NCBI GenBank assembly: GCA_051313645.2
Contig: JBNRSN020000020.1
Coordinates: 106,516,001 to 106,580,000, forward strand
Source of the DNA: Centroscyllium fabricii
Taxonomy: Eukaryota
Direction of reading: 5' to 3'
Length of the DNA: 64,000 nucleotides
Shown: one piece after another, positions 3,001 to 57,164 of the stretch
How positions within the stretch are numbered: the stretch's first letter is position 1
Layout of the letters: each line of letters begins with the position of its first letter
The notes under the pieces: generated by a model
The model's database searches: none
What the model saw: only the letters and a program-made list of their open reading frames with translations
Told to the model about the DNA's origin: nothing
Position numbers and translations under genes: made by a program

Positions 3001-6000
3001 ATCTCTCCTCTTCAGTCAGTAATCTCCTCTCTTCAGTCAGTAATCTCTCCTTTTCAGTCAGTAATCTCTCCTCTTCAGTCAGTAATCTCTCCTCTTCAGT
3101 CAGTAATCTCTCCTCTTCAGTCAGTAATCTCCCTTCTTTGGTCAGTAATCCCCACTCCAGTCAGTAATCTCTCCCCTTCAGTCAGTAATCTCCCCTCTTC
3201 AGTTAGTAATCTCTCCTCTTCAGTCAGTAATCTCTACTCTTCAGTCAGTAATCTCCTCTCTTCAGTCAGTAATCTCTCCTCTTCAGTCAGTAATCTCTCC
3301 TCTTCAGTCAGTAATCTCCCCTCTTCAGTCAGTCATCTCCCTCTTCAGTCAGTAAGATCCCCTCTTCAGTCAGTAATCTCTCCTCTTCAGTCAGTAATCT
3401 CTCCTCTTCAGTCAGTAATCTCTCCTCTTCAGTCAGTAATCTCCCCTCTTCAGTCAGTAATCACTCCTCTTCAGTCAGTAATCTCCCCTCTTCAGTCAGT
3501 AATCTCTCCTCTTCAGTCAGTAATCTCTCCTCTTCAGTTAGTAATCTCCCCTCTTCAGTCAGTAATCTCCCCTCTTCAGTCAGTAATCTCCCCTCTTCAG
3601 TCAGTAATCTCCCCTCTTCAGTCTGTAATCTCTCCTCTTCAGTCAATAATCTCCCCTCTTCAGTCAGTAATCTCTCCTCTTCAGTCAGTAATCTCCCCTC
3701 TTCAGTCAGTAATCTCCTCTCTTCAGTCAGTAATCTCCTGTCTTCAGTCAGTAAACACCCCTCTTCAGTCAGTAATCTCCCCTCTTCAGTCAGTAATCTC
3801 CCCTCTTCAGTCAGTAATCTCCCCTCTTCAGTCAGTAATCTCTCTTCAGTCAGTAATCACCCCTCTTCAGTCAGTAATCTCCCCTCTTCAGTCAGTAATC
3901 ACCCCTCTTCAGTCAGTAATCTCCCCTCTTCAGTCAGTAATCTCTCCTCTTCAGTCAGTAATCTCCCCTCTTCAGTTAGTAATCTCCCCTCTTCAGTCAG
4001 TAATCTCTCTTCTTCAGTCAGTAATCTCTCCTCTTCAGTCAGTAATCTCTCTTCAGTCAGTAATCTCCCCTCTTCAGTCAGTAATCTCTCCTCTTCAGTC
4101 AGTAATCTCTCCTCTTCAGTCAGTAATCTCTCCTCTTCAGTCAGTAATCTCTCCTCTTCAGTCAGTAATATCTCCTCTTCAGTTAGTAATCTCTCATCTT
4201 CAGTCAGTAATCTCTCCTCTTCAGTCATTAATCTCCCCTCTTCAGTCAGTAATCTCTCCTCTTCAGTCAGTAATCTCTCCTCTTCAGTCAGTAATCTCTC
4301 CTCTTCAGTCAGTAATGTCCCCTCTTCAGTCAGTAATCACTCCGCTTCAGTCAGTAATCTCCTCTCTACAGTCAGTAATCTCTCCTCTTCAGTCAGTAAT
4401 CTCTCCTCTTCAGTTAGTAATCTCCCCTCTTCAGTCAGTAATCTCCCCTCTTCAGTCAGTAATCTCCCCTCTTCAGTCAGTAATCTCCCCTCTTCAGTCT
4501 GTAATCTCTCCTCTTCAGTCAATAATCTCCCCTCTTCAGTCAGTAATCTCTCCTCTTCAGTCAGTAATCTCCCCTCTTCAGTCAGTAATCTCTCCTCTTC
4601 AGTCAGTAATCTCCCTCTTCAGTCATTAAGATCCCCTCTTCAGTCAGTAATCTCTCCCCTTCAGTCAGTAATCTCCCCTCTTCAGTCAGTAATCTCCCCT
4701 CTTCAGTCAGTGATCTCCCTCTTCAGTCAGTAATCTCTCCTCTTCAGTCAGTAATCTCTCCTCTTCAGTCAGTAATCTCCCCTCTTCGGTCAGTAATCTC
4801 CCCTCTTCAGTCAGTAATCTCCTCTCTTCAGTCAGTAATCTCCTGTCTTCAGTCAGTAAACACCCCTCTTCAGTCAGTAATCTCCCCTCTTCAGTCAGTA
4901 ATCACCCCACTTCAGTCAGTAATCTCCCCTCTTCACTCATTAATCTCTCCTCTTCAGTCAGTAATCTCCCCTCTTCAGTTAGTAATCTCCCCTCTTCAGT
5001 CAGTAATCTCTCCTCTTCAGTCAGTTATCTCTCCTCTTCAGTCAGTAATCTCTCTTCAGTCAGTAATCTCCCCTCTTCAGTCAGTAATCTCTCCTCTTCA
5101 GTCAGTAATCTCCCCTCTTCAGTCAGTAATCTCCCCTCTTCAGTCAGTAATCTCCCCTCTTCAGTCAGTGATCTCCCTCTTCAGTCAGTAATCTCTCCTC
5201 TTCAGTCAGTAATCTCTCCTCTTCAGTCAGTAATCTCTCCTCTTCAGTCAGTAATCTCCCCTCTTCAGTCAGTAATCTCCCTCTTCAGTCAGTAATCTCC
5301 CCTCTTCAGTCAGTAATCGCTCCTCTTCAGTCAGTAATCTCCCCTCTTCAGTCAGTAATCTCTCCTCTTCAGTCAGTAATCTCTCCTCTTTAGTCAGTAA
5401 TCTCCCCTCTTCAGTCAGTAATCTCCCCTCTTCAGTCAGTAATCTCTCTTCAGTCAGTAATCTCCTCTCATCAGTCAGTAATCACCCCTCTTCAGTCAGT
5501 AATCTCCCCTCTTCAGTCAGTGATCTCCCGCTTCAGTCAGTAATCTCTCCTCTTCAGTCAGTAATCTCCCCTCTTTGGTCAGTAATCTCCCCTCTTCAGT
5601 CAGTAATCTCCTCTCTTCAGTCAGTAATCTCCTCTCTTCAGTCAGTAAACACCCCTCTTCAGTCAGTAATCTCCCCTCTTCAGTCAGTAATCACCCCACT
5701 TCAGTCAGTAATCTCCTCTCTTCACTCATTAATCTCTCCTCTTCAGTCAGTAATCTACCCACTTCAGTTAGTAATCTCCCCTCTTCAGTCAGTAATCTCT
5801 CCTCTTCAGTCAGTTATCTCTCCTCTTCAGTCAGTAATCTCCCCTCTTAAGAAAGTAATCTCCCCTCTTCAGTCAGTAATCTCCCCTCTTCAGTCAGTGA
5901 TCTCCCTCTTCAGTCAGTAATCTCTCCTCTTCAGTCAGTAATCTCTCCTCTTCAGTCAGTAATCTCCCCTCTTCAGTCAGTAATCTCTCATCTTCAGTCA

Positions 6001-16800: not shown

Positions 16801-18480
16801 GTCAGTAATCTCCCCTCTTCAGTTAGTAATCTCCCCTCTTCAGTCAGTAATCTCTCCTCTTCAGTCAGTAATCTCTCCTCTTCAGTCAGTAATCTCTCTT
16901 AATCAGTAATCTCCCCTCTTCAGTCAGTAATCTCTCCTCTTCAGTCAGTAATCTATCCTCTTCAGTCAGTAATCTCTCCTCTTCAGTCAGTAATCTCCCC
17001 TCTTCAGTCAGTAATCTCTCCTCTTCAGTCAGTAATCTCCCCTCTTCAGTCAGTAATCTCTCCTCTTCAGTCAGTAATCTCTCCTCTTCAGTCAGTAATC
17101 TCCCCTCTTCAGTCAGTAATCTCCCGTCTTCCGTCAGTAATCTCTCCTCTTCAGTCAGTAATCTCTCCTCTTCAGTCAGTAATCTCTCATCTTCAGTCAG
17201 TAATCTCTCCTCTTCAGTCAGTAATCTCCCCTCTTCAGTCAGTAATCTCTCCTCTTCAGTCAATAATCTCTCCTCTTCAGTCAGTAATCTCTCATCTTCA
17301 GTCAGTAATCTCCCCTCTTCAGTCAGTAATCTCTCCTCTTCAGTCAGTAATCTCCCCTCTTCAGTCAGTAATCTCTCATCTTCAGTCAGTAATCTCCCCT
17401 CTTCAGTAATCTCTCCTCTTCAGTCAGTAATCTCTCCTCTTCAGTCAGTAATCTCTCTTCACTCAGTAATCTCCCCTCTTCAGTCAGTAATCTCTCCTCT
17501 TCAGTCAGTAATCTCTCCTCTTCAGTCAGTAATCTCTCCTCTTCAGTCAGTAATATCACCTCTTCAGTCATTAATCTCTCCTCTTCAGTCAGTAATCTCT
17601 CTTCTTCAGTCAGTAATCTCTCCTCTTCAGTCAGTAATCTCTCTTCTTCAGTCAGTAATCTCCCCTCTTCAGTCAGTAATCTCTCCTCTTCAGTCAGTAA
17701 TCTCCCCACTTCAGTCAGTAATCTCTCCTCTTCAGTCAGTAATCTCCCCTCTTCAGTCAGTAATCTCTCCTCTTCAGTCAGTAATCTCTCCTCTTCAGTC
17801 AGTAATCTCCCCTCTTCAGTCAGTAATCTCCCATCTTCCGTCAGTAATCTCTCCTCTTCAGTCAGTAATCTCTCCTCTTCAGTCAGTAATCTCTCATCTT
17901 CAGTCAGTAATCTCTCCTCTTCAGTCAGTAATCTCCCCTCTTCAGTCAGTAATCTCCCCTCTTCAGTCAGTAATCTCTCCTCTTCAGTCAGTAATCTCTC
18001 CTCTTCAGTCAGTAATCTCTCCTCTTCCGTCAGTAATCTCCCCTCTTCAGTCAGTAATCTCTCCTCTTCAGTCATAATCTCCCCTCTTCAGTCAGTAATC
18101 TCTCCTCTTCAGTCAGTAATCTCTCCTCTTCAGTCAGTAATCTCCCCTCTTCAGTCAGTAATCTCTCCTCTTCAGTCAGTAATGTCTCATCTTCAGTCAG
18201 TTATCTCTCCTCTTCAGTCAGTAATCTCCCCTCTTCAGTCAGTAATCTCCCCTCTTCAGTCAGTAATCTCCCCTCTTCAGTCAGTAATCTCTCCTCTTCA
18301 GTCAGTAATCTCTCCTCTTCAGTCAGTATTCTCTCCTCTTCAGTCAGTAATCTCTCCTCTTCAGTCAGTAATCTCTCCTCTTCAGTCAGTATTCTCTCCT
18401 CTTCAGTCAGTAATCTCTCCTCTTCAGTCAGTAATCTCTCCTCTTCAGTCAGAAATCTCTCCTCTTTATTCAGTAATCTC

Positions 18481-19031
18481 TGTCATGGGTGGACTGTCAC
18501 TTTAAATGTCTAGGCTGCAGTTCATTATTGGATCATCACCTATTGTAATGTAACACATCTGATTGGTCTAAATTCTAGATATAAGCCACCTGTTAGCCCT
18601 AGGACTTTGTCGGAGTGTTATTTCTATGCTGCTGGTTTAAGAGTTCTGTTATTTCCTGTTACCTGTTATTTCTGGAGTTATATTTGTATTCGTTTCCAAT
18701 CGTTTTGGATTCCTGGTTCCTGCCGTGTGAGATTACCTGGTACACCGATCAAGGAGTGTCCTTTCCTGAACTGTGATTATTGGAAGTACTGCAGCACCAG
18801 ACTTTTGGGCCTTGCTTTTTCAACCACCAAGGATTGGGGTTTGGACATTTGAACTCTGGCTTACCGGCTATCGGTATTTTGGACTACTGTTGCTTTATTG
18901 TGCATTGTGGATTATACTCTATGTGTTTTGATATCTTTATATGCACTGTTGTTATAATTAGGATTAAAGCACCCATTTACTATAGACTGTCTCCGGTGTT
19001 CTGCTATTGGGTTCGAAACCGAACCATTACA
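18481..19031 (+). repeat. 5' LTR (551 bp)
   Basis: TGTCATGGG...CCATTACA repeated at +5075; reverse CCAAT (GATTGG 18561), TATAAG 18580, ATTAAA 18963. Confidence 0.97.
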
Positions 19032-19032
19032 G

Positions 19033-19043
19033 AACACTCCGAC
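19033..19043 (+). promoter_or_regulatory. Self-priming primer-binding site (AACACTCCGAC)
   Basis: Exact reverse complement of GTCGGAGTGTT at 18609-18619, about 29 nt downstream of the TATA box; no TGG tRNA-type PBS. Confidence 0.85.
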
Positions 19044-19048
19044 CAATC

Positions 19049-20005
19049 ATGAACCCAGCAGACACACCGGGACGTCTGGCGCGCATGGAGGAGGTCCTGA
19101 CACTTCAGGGTCAGGCTTTTGGGGATTTGTTCTCTAAAATAGAACGGCTAACCTCTGACATGAGGGCGTTCGCTGTAGCAAACCCAGCAGGGACTTCTTC
19201 CACACCGGAACCTGTTTCAACAGCTGAATCAGTTTTCCTGCCTCTACTTCAGAGCTTCACACCCGAGCCCCGGGTTGGAGCACCAGAGCGTTATGCTGGT
19301 GAACCAGAACAGTGCGACCCCTTCATTACGAACTGTTCTATTTTGTTTTCCCTACAACCGCGCACCTTTGCCAGCGAGAAGGCAAGAGTAGCATTTATGA
19401 TCAACCATCTCTCGGGGAGAGCTAGACTCTGGGGTACTGCCGAGTGGGAGAGAGATACTCCGGCATGCAGTTCTTTCAGAACCTTTTCTGGGGAGTTGAG
19501 AAGAGTTTTTGGCAGGGTAGCCTTTGAGGTGGAGACGGCTGAGGGCCTTATGAGTATGAACCAGGGAAATCAGACGGTGGTGGACTATGCCATTGATTTT
19601 CGGATCAAGGCTCGTCGGAGCAATTGGAACATGGCTGCCCAATGTGAGGTTTTCCTGCATGGATTGGCGGGATACGTCAAGGATGAATTAGTATCACATA
19701 ATCTCCCTTCTACTTTGGATGAGATCATCAGTCTGGTTACTAGGATTGATCTAAGGATCCAGGCACGACAGCGTGAGAGAGGATTGGGAGAGACGGGTCA
19801 TCATCCTGGTAAACGGGTTCAGGAGAGATTCGTGGCGCCCAGAGATTCGGCCACGTCAGGGATTCCCGAACCCATGCAGTTAGGACGCACAGGTATTTCG
19901 CCATTAGAGCACAGTCGGCGCCGCAGGAGCCGTTTATGCCTATACTGTGGTCAGGCCGGCCATTTTGTCGTAGGATGCCCGGTAAAAGACCAGACTCACC
20001 AGTAG
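19049..20005 (+). CDS. gag: Gag (318 aa; retrotransposon capsid plus CCHC zinc knuckle)
   Basis: ATG at 19049 just after the PBS; PERYAG...L.GRARLW capsid motifs, [21 protein letters not shown]. Confidence 0.93.
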
Positions 20006-23000
20006 AGGGAGTCGTACTGGTGAGCCGAACTCCGATTAGACTCTCTTCAAATTCACGGCCTTTGTGCCAGGCTCGACTTCTTCTGCCGTCAGGATCTCGG
20101 AAGTTTGCCATATTTATCGACTCGGGGGCAGATGTTAATATCATTGATAAGGACCTGGTTACACAGTTGGGGATCGACCGGTGTCCACTGCCGCAACCTG
20201 TTGCTGCCAACGCTCTTGATGGCCACCTTCTGGGAACAGTGACTCATCAGACGTCGCCCATTCACTTATTGTTTTCAGGGAATCATCATGAAAGCATTCG
20301 GTTCCATATCCTGGATTCGCCTCAGCTTCCTCTTATTCTGGGACACGCGTGGCTTCGTCGTCACAATCCCCACATTGACTGGAACACGGGAGCCATTTTG
20401 GGTTGGAGTCATTCCTGTCACCAAGTCTGCTTAAAACAAGCCACTGGAGGCCGTCAGTCGGTCACACCTCTTCCCAGTTCTGATCTCTCTGCGGTTCCTA
20501 CCGAGTATCATGATTTCAGGGAGGTATTTAGTAAGGCTAGAGCCACTTCGCTACCTCCACATCGCCCATACGATTGTGCTATTGATTTATTACCAGGCTC
20601 CTCTCCACCCAGGGGGCGCCTGTATTCACTATCGGCACCTGAGAGGAGGGCCATGGAGGTCTATATCGAGGACTCAATATCTGCTGGGATCATCCGTTCT
20701 TCCTCTTCTCCAGCAGGGGCAGGATTCTTCTTCGTTGGCAAGAAGGACGGTTCGCTCCGGCCTTGTATCGATTATAGAGGACTTAATGATATCACTATCA
20801 AGAATCGGTATCCTCTGCCTCTTATCTCGTCAGCATTTGAATTAATTCAGGGAGCTACCATCTTTTCTAAATTGGATCTGCGCAACGCGTACCATCTGGT
20901 CCGGATAAGAGAGGGCGATGAGTGGAAAACCGCTTTCAACACTCCGTCTGGCCATTACGAATATCTAGTTATGCCGTTCGGGTTAACCAACGCCCCGGCG
21001 GTATTTCAAGCCCTGGTCAACGACGTTCTTCGGGACATGCTGAATATTTTTGTTTTTGTGTACATGGACGATATTCTTATATTTTCAAAGACTCAGGAGG
21101 AACATGTGCATCACGTACAGACGGTTTTGCAAAGGCTTCTAGAAAACTCTTTATTTGTAAAAGCCGAGAAATGTGAGTTTCATGTGACCACCGTTTCATT
21201 CCTGGGCTATATCATCGCGCAGGGGAGCGTGCGAATGGACCCGGAGAAGGTGACAGCCGTTACGTCTTGGCCTAGTCCGGAGAATCGCAAGCAATTACAA
21301 CGGTTCTTGGGTTTCGCTAACTTTTACCGAAGATTTATTCGGGGCTATAGCACGGTAGCGGCACCATTATCGGCGCTTACATCTTCTAAGGTGCCATTCA
21401 GATGGTCTATCGCTGCTGAGGAGGCGTTTAAGGAACTCGGGTCCCGCTTTACTTCGGCTCCCATTCTGCAGGTGCCTGACCCGGATCAACAATTTGTAGT
21501 AGAGGTGGATGCATCGGATGTGGGAGTTGGAGCCATCTTATCCCAGAAGTCAGTTTCGGACCAGAAGATCCATCCATGTGCCTTCTTCTCCAAGCGTCTT
21601 TCACCAGCAGAAATGAATTATGATATCGGGGACAGAGAATTGCTGGCGGTCAAGATGGCCTTAGAGGAGTGGCGCCACTGGCTGGAGGGGACCAAGCTGC
21701 CATTTCTTGTGTGGACGGATCACAAAAATTTGGAGTATATACGTACGGCCAAAAGGCTAAATTCACGGCAGGCTAGGTGGTCTCTTTTTTTTACGCGATT
21801 CCACTTCACCCTCTCCTACAGGCCTGGCTCCCGCAACATCAAACCCGATGCTCTATCGCGCCTATTTACGAGAGAGGAGGGTTCCGCCCCAGGGCCAGAC
21901 CTCATTTTGCCAGCCTCCTGCCGTATTGCTGCGGTTACATGGGAGATCGAGGAGAGGGTAAGAGCAGCTGCGGGGGAGCAGGGCGGGCCCAGCGGTTGTC
22001 CTCCCGACCGTTTGTTTGTGCCTAAGAACATTCGATCGGATGTCCTTCAGTGGGCTCATGCGTCCAAGCTGTCCTGCCATCCTGGGGCACTCAGGACCAA
22101 GGAGGTGATTTTGCGAAGGTTCTGGTGGGACACGCTAGAGGAGGATACTCGGAGTTTCGTCAATGCCTGTCCGATTTGCAACCAGCACAAGTCTTCTCGG
22201 CGGGCACCTGCTGGCCTGCTTCAACCATTGCCTATACCCCATCGGCCTTGGTCTCACATAGCCCTGGATTTTGTCACAGGGCTACCCTCATCCAAGGGAC
22301 TGACCACGGTACTAACGGTGGTGGACAGGTTTAGCAAGATGGCACATTTTATACCCTTGGCTAAGCTGCCCTCTGCTAAAGAAACTGCAGAGCTCATGTT
22401 GCAGCACGTGTTTCGGCTTCATGGGCTTCCGGTGGATGTGGTGTCTGATCGAGGTCCCCAATTTACTTCGATATTTTGGAGGGAATTCTGCAGTCTCATC
22501 GGGGCCAAGGTCAGTCTGTCGTCGGGATTCCATCCCCAGTCTAATGGACAATCGGAGAGGATGAATCAGGAGATGGAGAAGGCACTTCGGTGCATGATCT
22601 CCAAAAATCCCTCTTCCTGGTCCACATTACTATTGTGGGTGGAGTATGCGCACAACACGCTGACTAGTTCCGCTACAGGACTTTCGCCCTTTCAGTGCGC
22701 ATATGGGTTCCAGCCTCCATTGTTTCCGGACCTAGAGAAGGAGGTATCTTGTCCGTCCGTCCAGGACTTCATCCAACGATGCCACAGGACATGGGAACAA
22801 GCGCGGATGTCGCTCCTTCGCTCGGCGGATCGATACTCGGCTTCGGCCAACCGTCGTCGTTCTACTGCTCCGGAGTATCGGGTCGGGCAGAAGGTTTGGC
22901 TCTCCACAAAGGATCTGCCTCTCCAAGTGGAGTCCAAAAAACTCGCTCCCAGATTTATCGGACCGTTCGTGGTTGAAAAGATCATTAACCCCGCTGCGGT

Positions 23001-23478
23001 ACGACTCAAGCTCCCCAAGTCCATGAGGGTTCATCCCACTTTCCACGTATCACGTATAAAGCCTGCTCAGGAGAGTGCCTTAGTACCCGTTTCCGCACCC
23101 CCTCCACCTCCTCGTATGCTCGACGGTGGATTAGTGTACACGGTCCGTCGTTTGCTTGACTCCCGTCGCCGAGGAAAGGGACTTCAGTACCTAGTGGACT
23201 GGGAAGGGTATGGTCCTGAGGAGAGGTCCTGGGTCCCTGCTCGGAATATCATGGATCCCAAACTTATTTCCGACTTTCGCAAACAGCACCCTGGTCAACC
23301 GAGAAAGGGGAGGGCGATTCCTAGGAGACCTGGACAGGTTTTCGACCCCATTTTGAGTCAGGTGGACCTGGACGATAGGGTGGCATCTGATGACGAGGGC
23401 CCTGAAATAATGGGGCAGGATGATTCTGTTTCACCAGATGAGGAGATGGACATTGACAAGAGACCCGAAAATTGTTAG
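19936..23478 (+). CDS. pol: Pol: protease, RT, RNase H, integrase, chromodomain (probably made as a Gag-Pol fusion)
   Basis: IDSGA; [31 protein letters not shown]; VDASD, ELLAVK, TDHKNL; HHCC zinc finger, [17 protein letters not shown]; [16 protein letters not shown]. 1180 codons without a stop. Confidence 0.97.
19981..20047 (+). promoter_or_regulatory. Putative -1 ribosomal frameshift signal (G GTA AAA plus pseudoknot)
   Basis: Pol is in the -1 frame; heptamer 19981-19987, 7-nt spacer, perfect 10-bp stem CTCACCAGTA (19995-20004)/TACTGGTGAG (20015-20024); the loop can pair with 20039-20047. Confidence 0.75.
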
Positions 23479-23542
23479 TTCCTTCTCCCCGCCAACCCGG
23501 TTGTAGGCGATTGGGTTTTGGGGACGTCAGGTGGCGTCCCTT

Positions 23543-23552
23543 AAGGGGGGGG
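23543..23552 (+). other. Polypurine tract AAGGGGGGGG preceded by hairpin GGGACGTC-AGGT-GGCGTCCC (23521-23540)
   Basis: Lies 3 nt before the 3' LTR. Confidence 0.9.
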
Positions 23553-23555
23553 TTC

Positions 23556-24106
23556 TGTCATGGGTGGACTGTCACTTTAAATGTCTAGGCTGCAGTTCAT
23601 TATTGGATCATCACCTATTGTAATGTAACACATCTGATTGGTCTAAATTCTAGATATAAGCCACCTGTTAGCCCTAGGACTTTGTCGGAGTGTTATTTCT
23701 ATGCTGCTGGTTTAAGAGTTCTGTTATTTCCTGTTACCTGTTATTTCTGGAGTTATATTTGTATTCGTTTCCAATCGTTTTGGATTCCTGGTTCCTGCCG
23801 TGTGAGATTACCTGGTACACCGATCAAGGAGTGTCCTTTCCTGAACTGTGATTATTGGAAGTACTGCAGCACCAGACTTTTGGGCCTTGCTTTTTCAACC
23901 ACCAAGGATTGGGGTTTGGACATTTGAACTCTGGCTTACCGGCTATCGGTATTTTGGACTACTGTTGCTTTATTGTGCATTGTGGATTATACTCTATGTG
24001 TTTTGATATCTTTATATGCACTGTTGTTATAATTAGGATTAAAGCACCCATTTACTATAGACTGTCTCCGGTGTTCTGCTATTGGGTTCGAAACCGAACC
24101 ATTACA
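23556..24106 (+). repeat. 3' LTR (551 bp)
   Basis: No difference from the 5' LTR seen by eye; LTR-internal ORF translations in the track are identical. Confidence 0.97.
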
Positions 24107-51485: not shown

Positions 51486-52284
51486 CCCCTCCGACAGTGC
51501 GGCGCTCCCTCAGTACTGCCCCCTCCGACAGTGCAGCGCTCCCTCAGTAATGCCCCTCCGACAGTGCGCCGCTCACTCAGTACCACCCCTCTGACAGTGC
51601 AGCGCTCCCTCAGTACTGACCCTCCGACAGTGCGGCGCTCCCTCAATGCTGCCCCTCCGACAGTGCGGCGCTCATTCAGTACTGCCTTTCCGACAGTGCG
51701 GCGTTCCCTCAATGCTTCCCCTCCGACAGTGCGGCGCTCATTCAGTACTGCCCTTCCGACAGTGCGGCGTTCCCTCAATGCTGCCCCTCCGACAGTGCGG
51801 CGCTCATTCAGTACTGCCCTTCTGACAGTGCGGCGTTCCCTCAGCACTGACTCTCCGACAGTTCAGCGTTCCCTCAGTACTGCCCCTCTGACAGTGCAGC
51901 ACTCCCTCAGTACTGCCCCTCCGACATTGCCCCTCCGACAGTGCGGCGTTCCCTCAGTACTGACTTTCCGACAGTTCAGCGTTCCCTAAGTACTGCCCCT
52001 CCGACAGTGCGGCGCTCCCTCAGTACTGCCCCTCTGACATTGCCCCTCCAACAGTGCAGTGTTCCCTCAGTATTGACTCTCCGACAGTTTGGTGTTCCCT
52101 CAGTACTGCCCCTCCGACAGTGCGGCACTCTGACACTGTGGCGCTTCCTCAGCCTTGCCCCTCCGACAGTGCGGCATTCCCTCAGTACTGACTCTCCGAC
52201 AGTTCAGCATTCCCTCAGTACTGCCCCTCCGACAGTGCGGCGCTCCCTCAGTACTGCCCCTCCGACAGTGTAGCGCTCCCTCAG
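51452..52284. repeat. 33-bp minisatellite (GCCCCTCCGACAGTGCGGCGCTCCCTCAGTACT), about 25 copies; resumes at 56807-56835 and 57165-57190
   Basis: Tandem repeat with 11-aa period (PPTVRRSLSTA); first unit is contiguous with the DeuSINE. Confidence 0.95.
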
Positions 52285-52584: not shown

Positions 52585-52641
52585 TTCACCCCTTTTTTAA
52601 AACAAAAGTCCGGCGGGGTGAACGTGACAGTTCTTTTAAAT

Positions 52642-55576
52642 TTACAAATTAAGTCGCTCCGGCGGCCTGGTGATCCTGGTTGAGCGTCGCACCGCTGGTG
52701 GTGTCCGCGGTCGTGGAGTGACCGGCCGAGTTGGTTGTGTCGATGGTGCTGATGCTGGTTGGCGAGCGGTGATTGACAGCGTCGATTGGTTTCTGGGTGG
52801 TGGTGCCCTTGTAGTGACAGTAGGAGGTGCGCTCTCTCCCTCGTCGTCTGACTCTAGGGGGCGTGCGCTGTGGAGCCATGCTGGAGGCCATGCCGTGCTG
52901 CTCGCAGGTGCCGGGTCCTCGTGCCGGCGAGCGTACCTTGGCGCCGGTGGCTGGGGTGGCGTGGCTGGCCGCGGTGGCCCGGGCGGAGTGGCTGGCCGTC
53001 TTGGGTGCGCGGGCTGCTGGGCGGGGCGTCTTGGGTGCGCGGTCTGCTGGGTGGGGCTGGGTTTGGGGACTCCCGCTGGTGCCAGGTCCTTGATTGACAC
53101 GGTGTCCTCCCTCCCGTCGGGGTACGCCACGTAGGCGTACTGGGGATTGGCGTGCAGGAGGTGGACCCGTTCGACCAGGGGATCTGCCTTGTGGCCCCTC
53201 ACGTGCTTCCTGAGTAGGACTGGTCCCAGGGATAGCAGCCACGATGGTAGCGAGGTCCCGGAAGCCGACTTCCTGGGGAAGGCAAAAAGTCGTTCGTGAG
53301 GGGTGGCATTAGTGGCCGTACACAGGAGGGACTGGATGGAGTGGAGCGCTTCAGGGAGGATGTCCTGCCAGCGGGTGACTGGGAGGCCTTTAGACCATAG
53401 GGCTAACAGGATGGCCTTCCAGACAGTGGCGTTCTCCCTCTCTACCTGTCCGTTCCCCCGGGGGTTGTAGCTGGTAGTCCTGCTAGTCGCGATGCCTTTG
53501 GCTAGCAGAAACTGACGCAGCTCGTCACTCATAAAGGACGCCCCCTGGTCGCTATGGATATAGCTGGGATAGCCGAACAGGGAGAAGATGCTGTGGAGGG
53601 CTTTGATGACCGTGGCGGAGGTCATGTCCGGGCAGGGGATGGCAAAGGGGAAGCGGGAGTACTCGTCAATTACGTTGAGGAAGTACACATTCCTGTTGGA
53701 GGAGGAAAGGGGTCCTTTGAAATCGACGCTGAGTCGTTCAAAGGGGCAAGTGGCCTTAATCAAATGCGCCCGGTCTGGCCGATAGAAGTGCGGCTTGCAC
53801 TCCGCACAGACCTGGCAATTGCTGGTCAGGGTCTTGACCTCTTCGATGGAGTAGGGGAGGTTGTGGGACTTCACAAAGTGAACCAACCTGGTGGCCCCCG
53901 GGTGGCAGAGGTCATTGTGTAAGGTTTGGAGGCGGTCTGTCTGTGCGCTGGCACAGGTACCGCGAGATAGGGCATCTGGGGGTTCGTTAAATTTCCCGGG
54001 CCGGTACAAGATATCATAGTTGAACGCAGAGAGTTCAATTCTCCACCTTAATATCTCGTCGTTCTTTATTTGACCCCGCTCTTTGTTGTTGAACATAAAA
54101 GCGACTGATCGTTGGTCAGTCAGCAGGGTAAAACGCTTGCCGGCCAGGTAGTGCTTCCAGTGACGCACTGCTTCAACGATGGCTTGGGCCTCCTTCTCGA
54201 CTGAGGAGTGACGGGTCTCGGGGCCCTGGAGGGTACGCGAGAAGAAGGCCACGGGTCTGTCCACCTGGTTAAGCGTGGCGGCCAGGGCAAAGTCCGATGC
54301 ATCGCTCTCTACTTGGAATGGGACAGATTCGTCCACAGCGTGCATCATAGCCTTCGCGATGTTGTCTTTAATGCCGCAGAACGCCGTGCGGGCATCTGCT
54401 GACAGGGGGAATGAGGTAGATTTAAGCAGTGGGCGAGCTTTGTCCGCGTAATTGGGGACCCACTGAGCATAATAGGCAAAGAACCCCAAGCACCGTTTAA
54501 GGGCCTTGGGGGAGTGGGGGAGGGGAAGCTCCATGAGGGGGCGCATGCAGTCCGGGTCGGGACCGATGACCCCATTCTCCACAACACTGCCGAGGATGGC
54601 AAGGCGGGTGGTACTAAACACACATTTTTCAGTGTTGTACGTTAGATTGAGTGTTTTGGCGGTGTGGAGAAATTTCTGGAGGTTGGCGTCATGGTCCTGC
54701 TGATCGTGGCCGCAGATGGTCACGTTATCGAGGTACGGGAAAGTGGCTCGCAGCCCGTACTGATCGACCATTCGGTCCATCTCCCTTTGGAAGACCGAGA
54801 CCCCATTCGTGACGCCAAACTGGACCCTGAGGAAGTGGTAGAGGCGGCCGTCAGCCTCGAAGGCAGTATAGAGACGGTACTCTGGGCGAATGGGAAGCTG
54901 GTGATATGCGGACTTCAGATCTATGGTGGAGAACACCCGGAACCTCGATAACCCCCTCCTTCAGGAGGCGCTGCACCTCAGACTTGATAAAGTCCATGTC
55001 CCCAGCACTGTAGCGCCTACTCTTGGTGGCGACGGGCTTGCAGTCTGGTGTGAGGTTGGCAAAGAGCGAGGGAGGGGCGACCTTAAGGGTCGAGAGGCCA
55101 CAGGTAGCGCGCCGGGGGTGCTGCGCTCAGCGCCGGTTGCTGACCGTGAGCAAGGGAAGGGGCCCACCGTACGCCATGGTAACGCTTTGGAGATGGCACT
55201 GGAAGTCCAGACCCAATAGTAATGGAGCGCAGAGCTGCGGCAGCACAAAAAAGCTAAAATTATTAAAGTGCACGCCCTGCACCGTTAGAGCCACTGCGCA
55301 ACGCCCAGAGACGTCCGCAGATTCAGATTTAGAAGCCATTGAAATTCTTTGGCTCGCTGGCATAACCTTAAGGGAGAGGCGCTTTACTGTCTCAGGATGA
55401 ATAAAACTCACCGTGCTCCCACTGTCGAAAAGGCACACCACGTCCTGTCCGTTCACTCCCACAGGCATCATCGATTTCCCGAGCGATTGGGCCTTGTTCT
55501 GGTCCAGAGTCACCGATGCCAATATTGGGTCGGCCGATTCCTCTTGATCCGAAGAGTAGTCCTCCGGGGCTGGTCC
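52642..55576 (-). pseudogene. pol: pol (protease, RT, RNase H, integrase), disrupted
   Basis: LFDSGS protease; in-frame TGA at 55127-55129; frameshifting deletion near 54943 removes the RT N-terminal motifs (GVIE joined to FRVFSTIDLKSAYHQ); YLDN, ESDASD, TDQRS, HHCC, DFKGP, HSDQG, GNGQVER; Pro-rich tail ending RRSTRITRPPERLNL. Confidence 0.9.
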
Positions 55577-56482
55577 CTAAGATGGCTGCCGCCATGCGGT
55601 GTTCTGCGGAGGGGGTGGCTGGGTCCAATATGGCGACTGCTGCCACGCGGGGTGCTGAGTGGGGGATGGTTGAGTCCAATATGGCTGCTCCCATGTTCCA
55701 CACGCGGCACTGCCCGGTTTCGGTTTAGGGGCTGATGTGGTCGCCTTACAGACTTTGGCATAATGTCCCTTTTTCCCACATTTTGAGCAGGCCGCTTCTC
55801 TTGCCGGGCAGCTACGTCTCGGATGCTGAGACTGCCCGCAAAAGTAACATTTTGCCGTCTTCGCGTGAGCGGCTGCGATCATTTCTTCCGCCGGCCGTTG
55901 CGCCGGCGCTGTCCAAGATGGCGGGGCTGGGCCCGTATAATTGCCGGAATATGATGAAAGATTTAGTGAGGCCACGTCCAGCGCGTGTCCCAGATCCGTT
56001 GTTGCCTGCAGGTCAAGGCCATTCTGCTCTAACAGCCTCTGTCTGATATAGTCCGACCTGAGGCCTGTAACGTATGCATCTCTAATGAGACTGTCCACAT
56101 GGAGCTGGGCCGATAGCGCTCTGCATTCGCAGGCCCGTGAGAGCACTCTCAGCGCTCTTAAAAATTCCATGCTGGACTCACCGGGTTGCTGCTTCCTGGT
56201 AGCTAGGATGTGTCTGGCATGGACGATATTGGGTGCCCGGTTGTACTCTGCCTTGAGGATCCTGATAGCATCCAGAAATGATGATGCGTCCACGATCATG
56301 GAGTACACCTGAGGGCCCACCCGGGCGTTGAGGAGCCGCCGTTTGTCCTCTTCGGTCCTGACGACCGCTGCGTTCGCTCTCAGGTACGCATCGAAAACAT
56401 CATACCAGTGCGAGAATGTGTTTGATGCGCCTGGTGTCTGGGGGTCCAGTTCAAACGTTGCTGGCTTGAGCATCGCTTCCAT
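55577..56482 (-). CDS. gag: Gag with two zinc knuckles; ends at a TAG that is in frame with protease
   Basis: ATG at 56482; TRKQQPGES..EF...L capsid motif; CYFCGQSQHPRRSC and CSKCGKKGHYAKVC. Confidence 0.8.
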   Translation of the reverse strand: MEAMLKPATFELDPQTPGASNTFSHWYDVFDAYLRANAAVVRTEEDKRRLLNARVGPQVYSMIVDASSFLDAIRILKAEYNRAPNIVHARHILATRKQQPGESSMEFLRALRVLSRACECRALSAQLHVDSLIRDAYVTGLRSDYIRQRLLEQNGLDLQATTDLGHALDVASLNLSSYSGNYTGPAPPSWTAPAQRPAEEMIAAAHAKTAKCYFCGQSQHPRRSCPAREAACSKCGKKGHYAKVCKATTSAPKPKPGSAACGTWEQPYWTQPSPTQHPAWQQSPYWTQPPPPQNTAWRQPS

Positions 56483-56505
56483 CTTCAAAATTTAGTGAAT
56501 AAAAT

Positions 56506-56806
56506 TGTGACCGAAATAACGACCTCGTGGACGAGTAGTTATAAGGGTGAAACAATACGGCTTTTATTCACTAAATGGTGGACATGCACCAGGTAGTCGA
56601 CCGTCCCCAGGAATGGCTGGGGGATGGGAGACGGCCACTTATATACCTCCTCCTGGGAGTTGAGGAGTCGCGGGCAGAGCCAGCCTGGGCATGTCCAGGT
56701 AATCGTACAACAGGTTAAACAGGTTATATACAAACATAGATATAAGCACGATTACAGAGATACATCATAGGGTGAGTATATACAATGGAAACAGTGGTTT
56801 ACCACA
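56506..56806 (-). repeat. 5' LTR (301 bp)
   Basis: Minus-strand TATATAA at 56645-56639 and AATAAA at 56568-56563. Confidence 0.95.
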
Positions 56807-56835
56807 CTCAGTACTGCCCCTTTGACAGTGCGGTG

Positions 56836-57164
56836 TGGTGGTTGGGGGTCTAGAACGAGGGGTCACAGTCTCAGGATACAGGGTAGGACATTTAGGACTG
56901 AGATGAGGAGAAATTTCTTCACTCAGAGGGTGGTGAACCTGTGGAATTCTCTACCCCAGAACGCTGTGGAGGCCAAGTCATTGAATATATTTAAGAAGGA
57001 GATCGATAGATTTCTAGACACAAAAGGCATCAAGGGGTATGGGGAGAGAGCGGGAATATGGTATTGAGTTGGAGGATCAGCCATGATCATATTGAATGGC
57101 GGAGCAGGCTCGAAGGGCCGAATAGCCGACTCCTGCTCCTATTTTTCTATGTTTCTTTGTTTCT
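56836..57164 (+). mobile_element. 5'-truncated CR1 3' end with 26-bp TSD
   Basis: SRTRGHSL...RRNFFTQRVVNLWNSLP...GYGERAGIWY*; (TTCTATGT)n-like tail; AGTACTGCCCCTTTGACAGTGCGGTG at 56810-56835 and 57165-57190. Confidence 0.92.

Follow-up and report, generated by a model that had tools for sequence, protein, structure and literature searches.

The 15 bases that follow the 5′ LTR of a Ty3/gypsy element in Centroscyllium fabricii most probably form the primer-binding site (PBS) of a gypsy clade that carries no tRNA site and is likely primed by its own RNA. The element lies in a stretch of 64,000 nt of contig JBNRSN020000020.1, referred to here as the window. We hold with equally high confidence that the feature is real, is lineage-wide and is best read as self-priming.

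The element is encoded on the minus strand, as are all of its features given below. Its 5′ LTR (56806-56506, 301 nt, TG..CA) is 98% identical to the 3′ LTR (52584-52285, 300 nt), the two differing by four substitutions and one indel, and the 5-bp target-site duplication CTGAG is present upstream (56807..56811) and again after the 3′ LTR (52280..52284). A purine run at 52585..52598 adjoins the 3′ LTR as the polypurine tract. The gag frame, which contains a zinc knuckle and has 75 homologues, spans 55577..56482 and ends in a stop codon at 55579-55577. It is followed by an aspartyl protease region (55127..55510; Pfam Asp_protease_2, E 3e-13) closed by a stop at 55129-55127, and by reverse transcriptase (RT), RNase H (RH) and integrase without a chromodomain (52642..54960, from Pfam and the translation). 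The Pfam domain order gag-PR-RT-RH-IN, together with the TG..CA LTRs, the target duplication and the polypurine tract, identifies a Ty3/gypsy LTR retrotransposon. The N-terminal part of the RT is lost and the frame is broken near 54945, with the RT-RH match beginning at residue 54 of the comparison piece; the copy is young but broken. Short internal repeats occur at 55660-55580, where a W-x-Q-P-rich stretch is encoded after the zinc knuckles, and at 53070-52930 in a Pro/Arg-rich integrase tail. A degenerate G-rich tandem repeat surrounds the insertion and extends to either side of it (51500-52284 and 56807-56840).

A single-base spacer (A, 56505) separates the LTR end from the primer site at 56490..56504, which is of the non-tRNA type and complementary to the element's own LTR. 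Read along the element, the 15 nt at 56504-56490 are exactly the reverse complement of one segment in each LTR, 56576-56562 (5′) and 52355-52341 (3′). The 5′ LTR copy of this partner (56562..56576) is the predicted 3′ part of a self-primer, with the predicted cut site at its 3′ end, between 56562 and 56561. It contains an AATAAA (56568-56563), which is the only AATAAA or ATTAAA of the LTR, and the gag ATG at 56482 stands 7 nt past the duplex. When the LTR was compared with the 20 nt after it, the longest reverse-complement match was 15, whereas 2000 dinucleotide-shuffled LTRs reached no more than 9. For the leader (56625-56470) the folding z is -3.5, and none of 200 shuffles equalled it. Rfam covariance models gave no matches in 56300-56900 at E up to 1, for self-cleaving ribozymes or any other family, and ARAGORN returned only one doubtful tRNA from the window and all loci. 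The initial annotation had described each of these elements of the arrangement in the window copy: the missing TGG of a tRNA-type PBS, the exact 15-nt complementarity including AATAAA and its second copy in the 3′ LTR, the gag ATG 7 nt past the duplex, and a primer-like geometry with a 1-nt gap and the partner 3′ end facing the LTR end. All of its coordinates were reproduced, and the geometry is the one found in a sushi-type element of the same window with its site at 19033.

Relatives were chosen by Gag protein similarity alone, blind to the primer site. Sixteen Gag homologues were aligned and metagenome contigs were then scanned, from which 207 stretches were confirmed; the best 80 of these 207 were kept as loci and grouped into 30 families at 80% gag DNA identity. 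Two scans of viral contigs for relatives found none. The primer-site feature itself is seen solely in the window and in metagenome contigs. A perfect run of at least 11 pairs, starting one base after CA and with its partner 15-100 nt upstream, is present in 46 of the 66 loci with more than 220 nt upstream (window included). At four control offsets the same run was found in 0/81, 0/72, 0/42 and 1/39. The single control match is an unrelated 13-bp inverted repeat after CA, at about 3120-3175 of locus L051.

By family, pairing is kept in the same register in 26 of 30: 24 reach 11 pairs, among them L078 (16/17 pairs), whose register was set by hand, and two more reach 9 before one mismatch. The four families in which no helix was found have 48 (L017), 92 (L025), 118 (L034) and 153 nt (L060) of upstream sequence; L034 starts at the apparent cut end of a partner and L060 is the most diverged. 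These four are truncated or decayed loci. An unanchored inverted-repeat search recovers the same helices. That CA is where the LTR ends is confirmed by LTR pairs with 5-bp duplications for families L004, L015 and L040, and the same LTR 3′ end is confirmed for those of L059 and L036; in L042 the LTR-pair alignment stops 3 nt short of the CA used. Further comparisons were made on 27 representatives, namely the window and the best copy from each of 26 families, those with fewer than 9 pairs being dropped. All 27 have A as the spacer base, and none has a site beginning with TGG.

The site changes from family to family and its partner changes with it. Among the 27 representatives there are 26 different sequences of the first 13 site bases, with a mean difference of 5.3 positions, and a site pairs at 12.7 of 13 positions with its own partner against 7.8 with foreign partners. 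In a MAFFT alignment, which retains three out-of-register rows (L042, L063 and L065), both sides change in 12 of 14 pairs, with 79 double-change cells against 20 in shuffles (0/500). The pairing between PBS and LTR that the initial annotation had proposed is therefore both conserved and covarying in relatives. In the same alignment the real register pairs at 92% and slid control partners at 27-49%, a comparison in which the real register has an advantage, having been derived from the same sequences; the double changes are independent of that advantage.

Within this first helix, 344 of the 351 core cells of the 27 representatives are Watson-Crick pairs, seven are mismatches and none is G-U, a zero that is biased by a search admitting Watson-Crick pairs only. 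The 12 single-locus families agree with the full set (151/156 Watson-Crick, no G-U). Mismatches common to separate insertions fall at position 14 (in four families, one of them with 7 insertions) and once at position 13, never at positions 1-12, and a core duplex of about 12-13 bp follows from this. Loci L007 and L008 do share a mismatch at position 2, but they share the flank too. In L027, L032 and L033, upstream of gag, the duplex by eye resumes past 12-13 bp after a one-base bulge, which suggests selection for RNA helix stability beyond the core.

Contigs from four sequencing runs show that the family exists in a great number of versions, with 9,914 pieces in X1. Variants occur in both arms: one at 56497 accounts for 410,000 of 1,038,000 depth in X1 (about 40%), is similar in X7 and is absent from X10 and X12, and one at 56570 makes up 25% of depth in X1, 29% in X7 and 71% in X10. 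The compensating positions, 56569 and 56496, are not among the variants listed (40 of 76). These arm variants could represent uncompensated subfamilies.

At partner position 11, A is present in 18/27 families, and at position 10, G in 19/27, in each case after a T-rich run (the two positions are 56572-56571 in the window). The two bases could be an initiator, a recognition element for RT or RNase H, or an inheritance. A primer made by splicing was considered, as a T-rich AG at positions 11-10 is acceptor-like, but pairing continues to position 13 in unspliced sequence, and this candidate was rejected.

A second helix adjoins the first. The bases directly after the partner are a purine, C, C and mostly T; of the 27 representatives, 25 have C at +2 and 23 have it at +3. 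This RCC motif would be the 5′ arm (56558..56561 in the window), identified from its conserved bases and a scan for 4-bp partners, and a motif scan places a possible 3′ arm of the window copy at 56510..56513. A 4-bp partner is present in the loop of 19/27 representatives, compared with a mean of 5.2 and a maximum of 12 in shuffles; it is missing in the remaining eight, and helix 2 is absent from the minimum-energy fold of the window copy. The first pair of helix 2 in these 19 is G-U in 13, G-C in four and A-U in two, and predicted loop helices contain G-U in 32 of 245 pairs. The absence of G-U is thus particular to helix 1. A wobble-free helix 1 beside a wobble-tolerant helix 2 is the contrast that would be expected from a primer copied into the PBS.

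The position of the partner in the RNA depends on where transcription starts. A predicted TATA box (TATATAA) lies at 56639..56645, and 31 nt after its start an initiator-like motif (56610..56616, by comparison with the general consensus) gives a predicted start at 56614, which places the partner at nt 39-53 of the transcript. Family L027 has the same TATA-initiator spacing. The earlier proposal that the partner lies about 35 nt inside the predicted transcript thus stands as to its internal placement, on the TATA box and initiator, with the distance corrected to about 38 nt. An internal primer is likely in the window element on these motifs, an inference that draws on few families, since TATA(A/T)A occurs in only four of the 24 representatives with 130 nt upstream (at -75, -82, -84 and -110 from the cut site).

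For comparison, Tf1 RNA anneals to the PBS through its first 11 bases, and cleavage by RNase H following base 11 releases the primer (PMC7175516). In the element described here the PBS would likewise pair with the partner in the 5′ LTR, and the partner would be cut at its 3′ end to become the primer. With a transcription start some 53 nt before the cut, this primer would be capped and about 50 nt long, whereas Tf1 uses its first 11 nt. The cut may be made by the element's own RNase H, as it is in Tf1. The strong-stop DNA copied from it would measure just 23-71 nt across the clade (56 in the window element). Strand transfer would use as its repeat the stretch of the 3′ LTR that runs from the poly(A) signal to the poly(A) site. 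If the primer is copied into plus-strand DNA, this may help to hold the two arms matched. Taken together, we tentatively propose, as a possibility that falls short of being probable, that a widespread animal gypsy clade uses a capped primer of about 50 nt ending in its own poly(A) signal, that helix 1 hides the 5′ signal and is then cut at its junction with helix 2 to yield both the primer and the start of the repeat, and that the clade would thereby represent a second way of self-priming, of separate origin from Tf1, in which 3′-end formation is coupled to replication.

Transcription might alternatively start at or just before the partner. The initial 11-18 nt of the RNA would then serve as primer, and the TATA upstream would not be a working promoter. 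Such an ordinary Tf1 geometry, which would still be self-priming and whose weight falls within the confidence given to self-priming above, is a serious, though rather unlikely, alternative. The core duplex of 12-13 bp has a fairly sharp edge and is near the 11 bp of Tf1, 20 of 24 families have no TATA box, and the common A and G at positions 11 and 10 are initiator-like. Against this, pairing often exceeds position 11 and its outer ends have no fixed base, and the window element has a TATA box and an initiator 31 nt apart, the latter 53 nt upstream of the cut, an arrangement that L027 shares. A Tf1-type start would moreover need a TATA box at -40 to -50, and TATA(A/T)A was found there in none of the 24 representatives, whereas the Tf1-type element of the window does have its TATA about 30 nt before the partner.

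The internal primer would end at a poly(A) signal, and this raises the question of what the helix is for. In 19 of 27 families the partner ends in AATAAA or ATTAAA; two others have the hexamer in the loop, outside the helix, and six lack it. In HIV-1, the AAUAAA of the 5′ LTR is held in the polyA hairpin, a helix local to R-U5, and priming is by tRNA. The helix described here may similarly serve to hide the 5′ poly(A) signal while another RNA acts as primer, and the lack of any other such hexamer in the window LTR agrees with this. We nevertheless consider such a function on its own improbable: the eight families without a canonical hexamer in the helix include the two that carry it in an open loop, masking needs neither a fixed one-base register nor the exclusion of G-U, and no alternative primer site is left, the position being occupied by 26 different 13-mers. 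The arrangement also differs from the HIV-1 hairpin in that the masking strand is the PBS itself and masking would concern the 5′ end only. Since the junction, not the hexamer, is invariant, masking is probably a frequent side benefit. Of the suggestion that the helix masks the 5′ poly(A) site, what remains is thus probably a secondary role, fitting the 19 families with the hexamer in the helix and not the other eight. Gating of gag translation by the same helix, also suggested initially, does not hold as a general feature because the spacing is too variable: across relatives the distance to the ATG ranges from 16 to 78 nt when measured from the LTR end and from -1 to 62 nt when measured from the duplex.

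The poly(A) signal precedes the poly(A) site, and a copy of the partner is thus present at the 3′ end of the RNA as well, where the 3′ LTR carries the identical 15 bases. Priming could then proceed from a circularized RNA whose 3′ end is cut at the poly(A) signal, which would again be self-priming. This version, put forward in the initial annotation for either copy, found no support for the 3′ one and seems very unlikely. The 5′ copy is just 23-71 nt from the primer site in all 27 representatives and should pair first, a cut at the partner would remove the tail, and the second helix favors the 5′ copy. Four representatives, window included, have the 3′ arm of helix 2 at a distance of 29-48 nt downstream of the partner; the poly(A) site probably precedes this arm, in which case helix 2 would form at the 5′ end only. 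That the site binds a host tRNA end, a tRNA fragment or another small RNA, with the LTR match arising by chance, is extremely improbable: most LTR retrotransposons do use tRNA and half-tRNA primers exist (PMC6317226), but TGG is found in no representative, the site changes per family in step with its own LTR, and a chance match is excluded by the shuffles and offset controls.

Self-priming has been demonstrated experimentally in Tf1 and predicted by sequence in its chromovirus relatives and in one plant copia lineage (PMC7175516, PMC6317226, bioRxiv 2022.12.06.519325). The window offers a direct comparison, as it contains a Tf1/sushi-type chromovirus (18479-24106, plus strand) whose 553-bp LTRs are identical and whose gag and pol frames are long and open; it is inserted in a 21-bp satellite. 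The self-priming site of this control is 11 nt long and located at 19033, separated from the LTR by one base, and its partner begins at 18609, about 30 nt after a TATA box. The satellite is a 21-bp tandem repeat array of about 1,970 copies with strong strand skew that occupies 1-49200 of the window, and its long ORFs are by-products. Pfam finds a Chromo domain in the 19816-23475 frame of the control and none in the pol frame of the element studied here. In an RT-RH tree of 48 rows, midpoint-rooted, with no named references and with the window's own chromovirus as its one chromovirus row, the element, 20 locus rows and nine database proteins form a single clade with 100/100 support and a stem of 1.16 changes per site. 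Two loci have RT-RH matches of this clade at unexpected places: in L030 near 693, upstream of gag, which would be a tandem or neighbouring copy, and in L011 near 11845, some 4.8 kb past gag. The control lies outside this clade and is 33.5% identical to the clade's query. As judged from these sequences, the clade is not part of Tf1/sushi, in agreement with the non-chromovirus placement made at the outset, and it is plausible that tRNA independence was reached separately. The closest named proteins are from sharks and rays, with 77% identity in pol to a Narcine protein, as suits a cartilaginous fish host, and proteins of the clade are found in cartilaginous fish, hagfish, Trichinella, Trichuris, insects, shrimp, snails and a coral.

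Among known systems, Tf1 and Tf2 of Schizosaccharomyces pombe, Tj1, Tosmo1-3, Tcry1 and the Tf1/sushi group including Tcn1 likewise have no tRNA site, with a PBS complementary to their own 5′ LTR and the 3′ end of the partner toward the LTR end. Self-priming has been reported for Tj1 (PMC4600332) and for the Tf1/sushi, Tcn1 and TAR lineages (PMC6317226), and in about half of the Tf1 cDNA the PBS is present as a single-stranded DNA copy (PMC11042837). The one-base gap is common to the window element and the window's sushi-type element. The differences from Tf1/sushi are that the clade lacks a chromodomain and forms a separate RT-RH clade, that its partner is predicted to be internal rather than at the cap and ends at a poly(A) signal, and that its loop is 23-71 nt compared with 412 nt in the window's sushi-type element. 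In Tf1-type elements the primer is located at the 5′ end of the RNA within a pretzel structure (bioRxiv 2022.12.06.519325). A crude test for the three duplexes of this structure in the 27 representatives gave longest helices of 5.7 against 5.4 in shuffles (downstream) and 4.1 against 4.4 (upstream), and when applied to the initial 60 loop bases of the sushi control it did not show a clear signal either. The clade thus differs from Tf1/sushi in having no PBS-flanking duplexes of the pretzel kind by this test, and in having a conserved LTR-internal helix 2 instead. In sum, the element would work like Tf1 without being a member of Tf1/sushi, and its new part would be the predicted internal, poly(A)-linked primer.

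Outside Tf1/sushi, the TAR lineage of plant Ty1/copia elements (Houba and Osr-1) is likewise predicted to self-prime from PBS-LTR complementarity, and the trait is therefore known in more than one lineage (PMC6317226). It differs from the present clade in being a plant copia lineage and, in the passages of that study compared, shows no link to the poly(A) signal. The fungal GalEa copia elements with a “conserved hairpin site” and the bivalve biv-TRIM are also without a canonical PBS, and a hairpin has been proposed in its place, but both arms lie in the internal domain (PMC6934838), whereas the helix described here joins an LTR arm to an arm at the PBS position. Saci2 has assigned tRNAs and 4-bp target duplications (PMC12471100), compared with 5 bp in the present element. 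For the named metazoan gypsy clades (Mag A/B/C, Cigr-1, CsRn1, MolGy and Saci2), the parts consulted of two clade papers (PMC6238403, PMC8556966) gave names without PBS data, and further clade names come from PMC3587641 and bioRxiv 2023.10.26.564294. Full-text searches returned no account of the feature for this lineage, while subscription papers, Repbase Reports and Dfam notes may contain a remark.

As the predicted cut site is fixed to one base, it is directly testable in small-RNA, CAGE and degradome data. The lack of a tRNA-type site accounts for PBS-based annotation overlooking such elements. If self-priming is correct, tRNA-free priming would be common in animals by way of a non-chromovirus gypsy clade. 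This bears on whether hairpin priming, which has been suggested as possibly ancestral, is indeed so or has arisen repeatedly, a question raised earlier (PMC3601003). It also predicts that elements of this clade would escape control by tRNA supply or by tRNA fragments.
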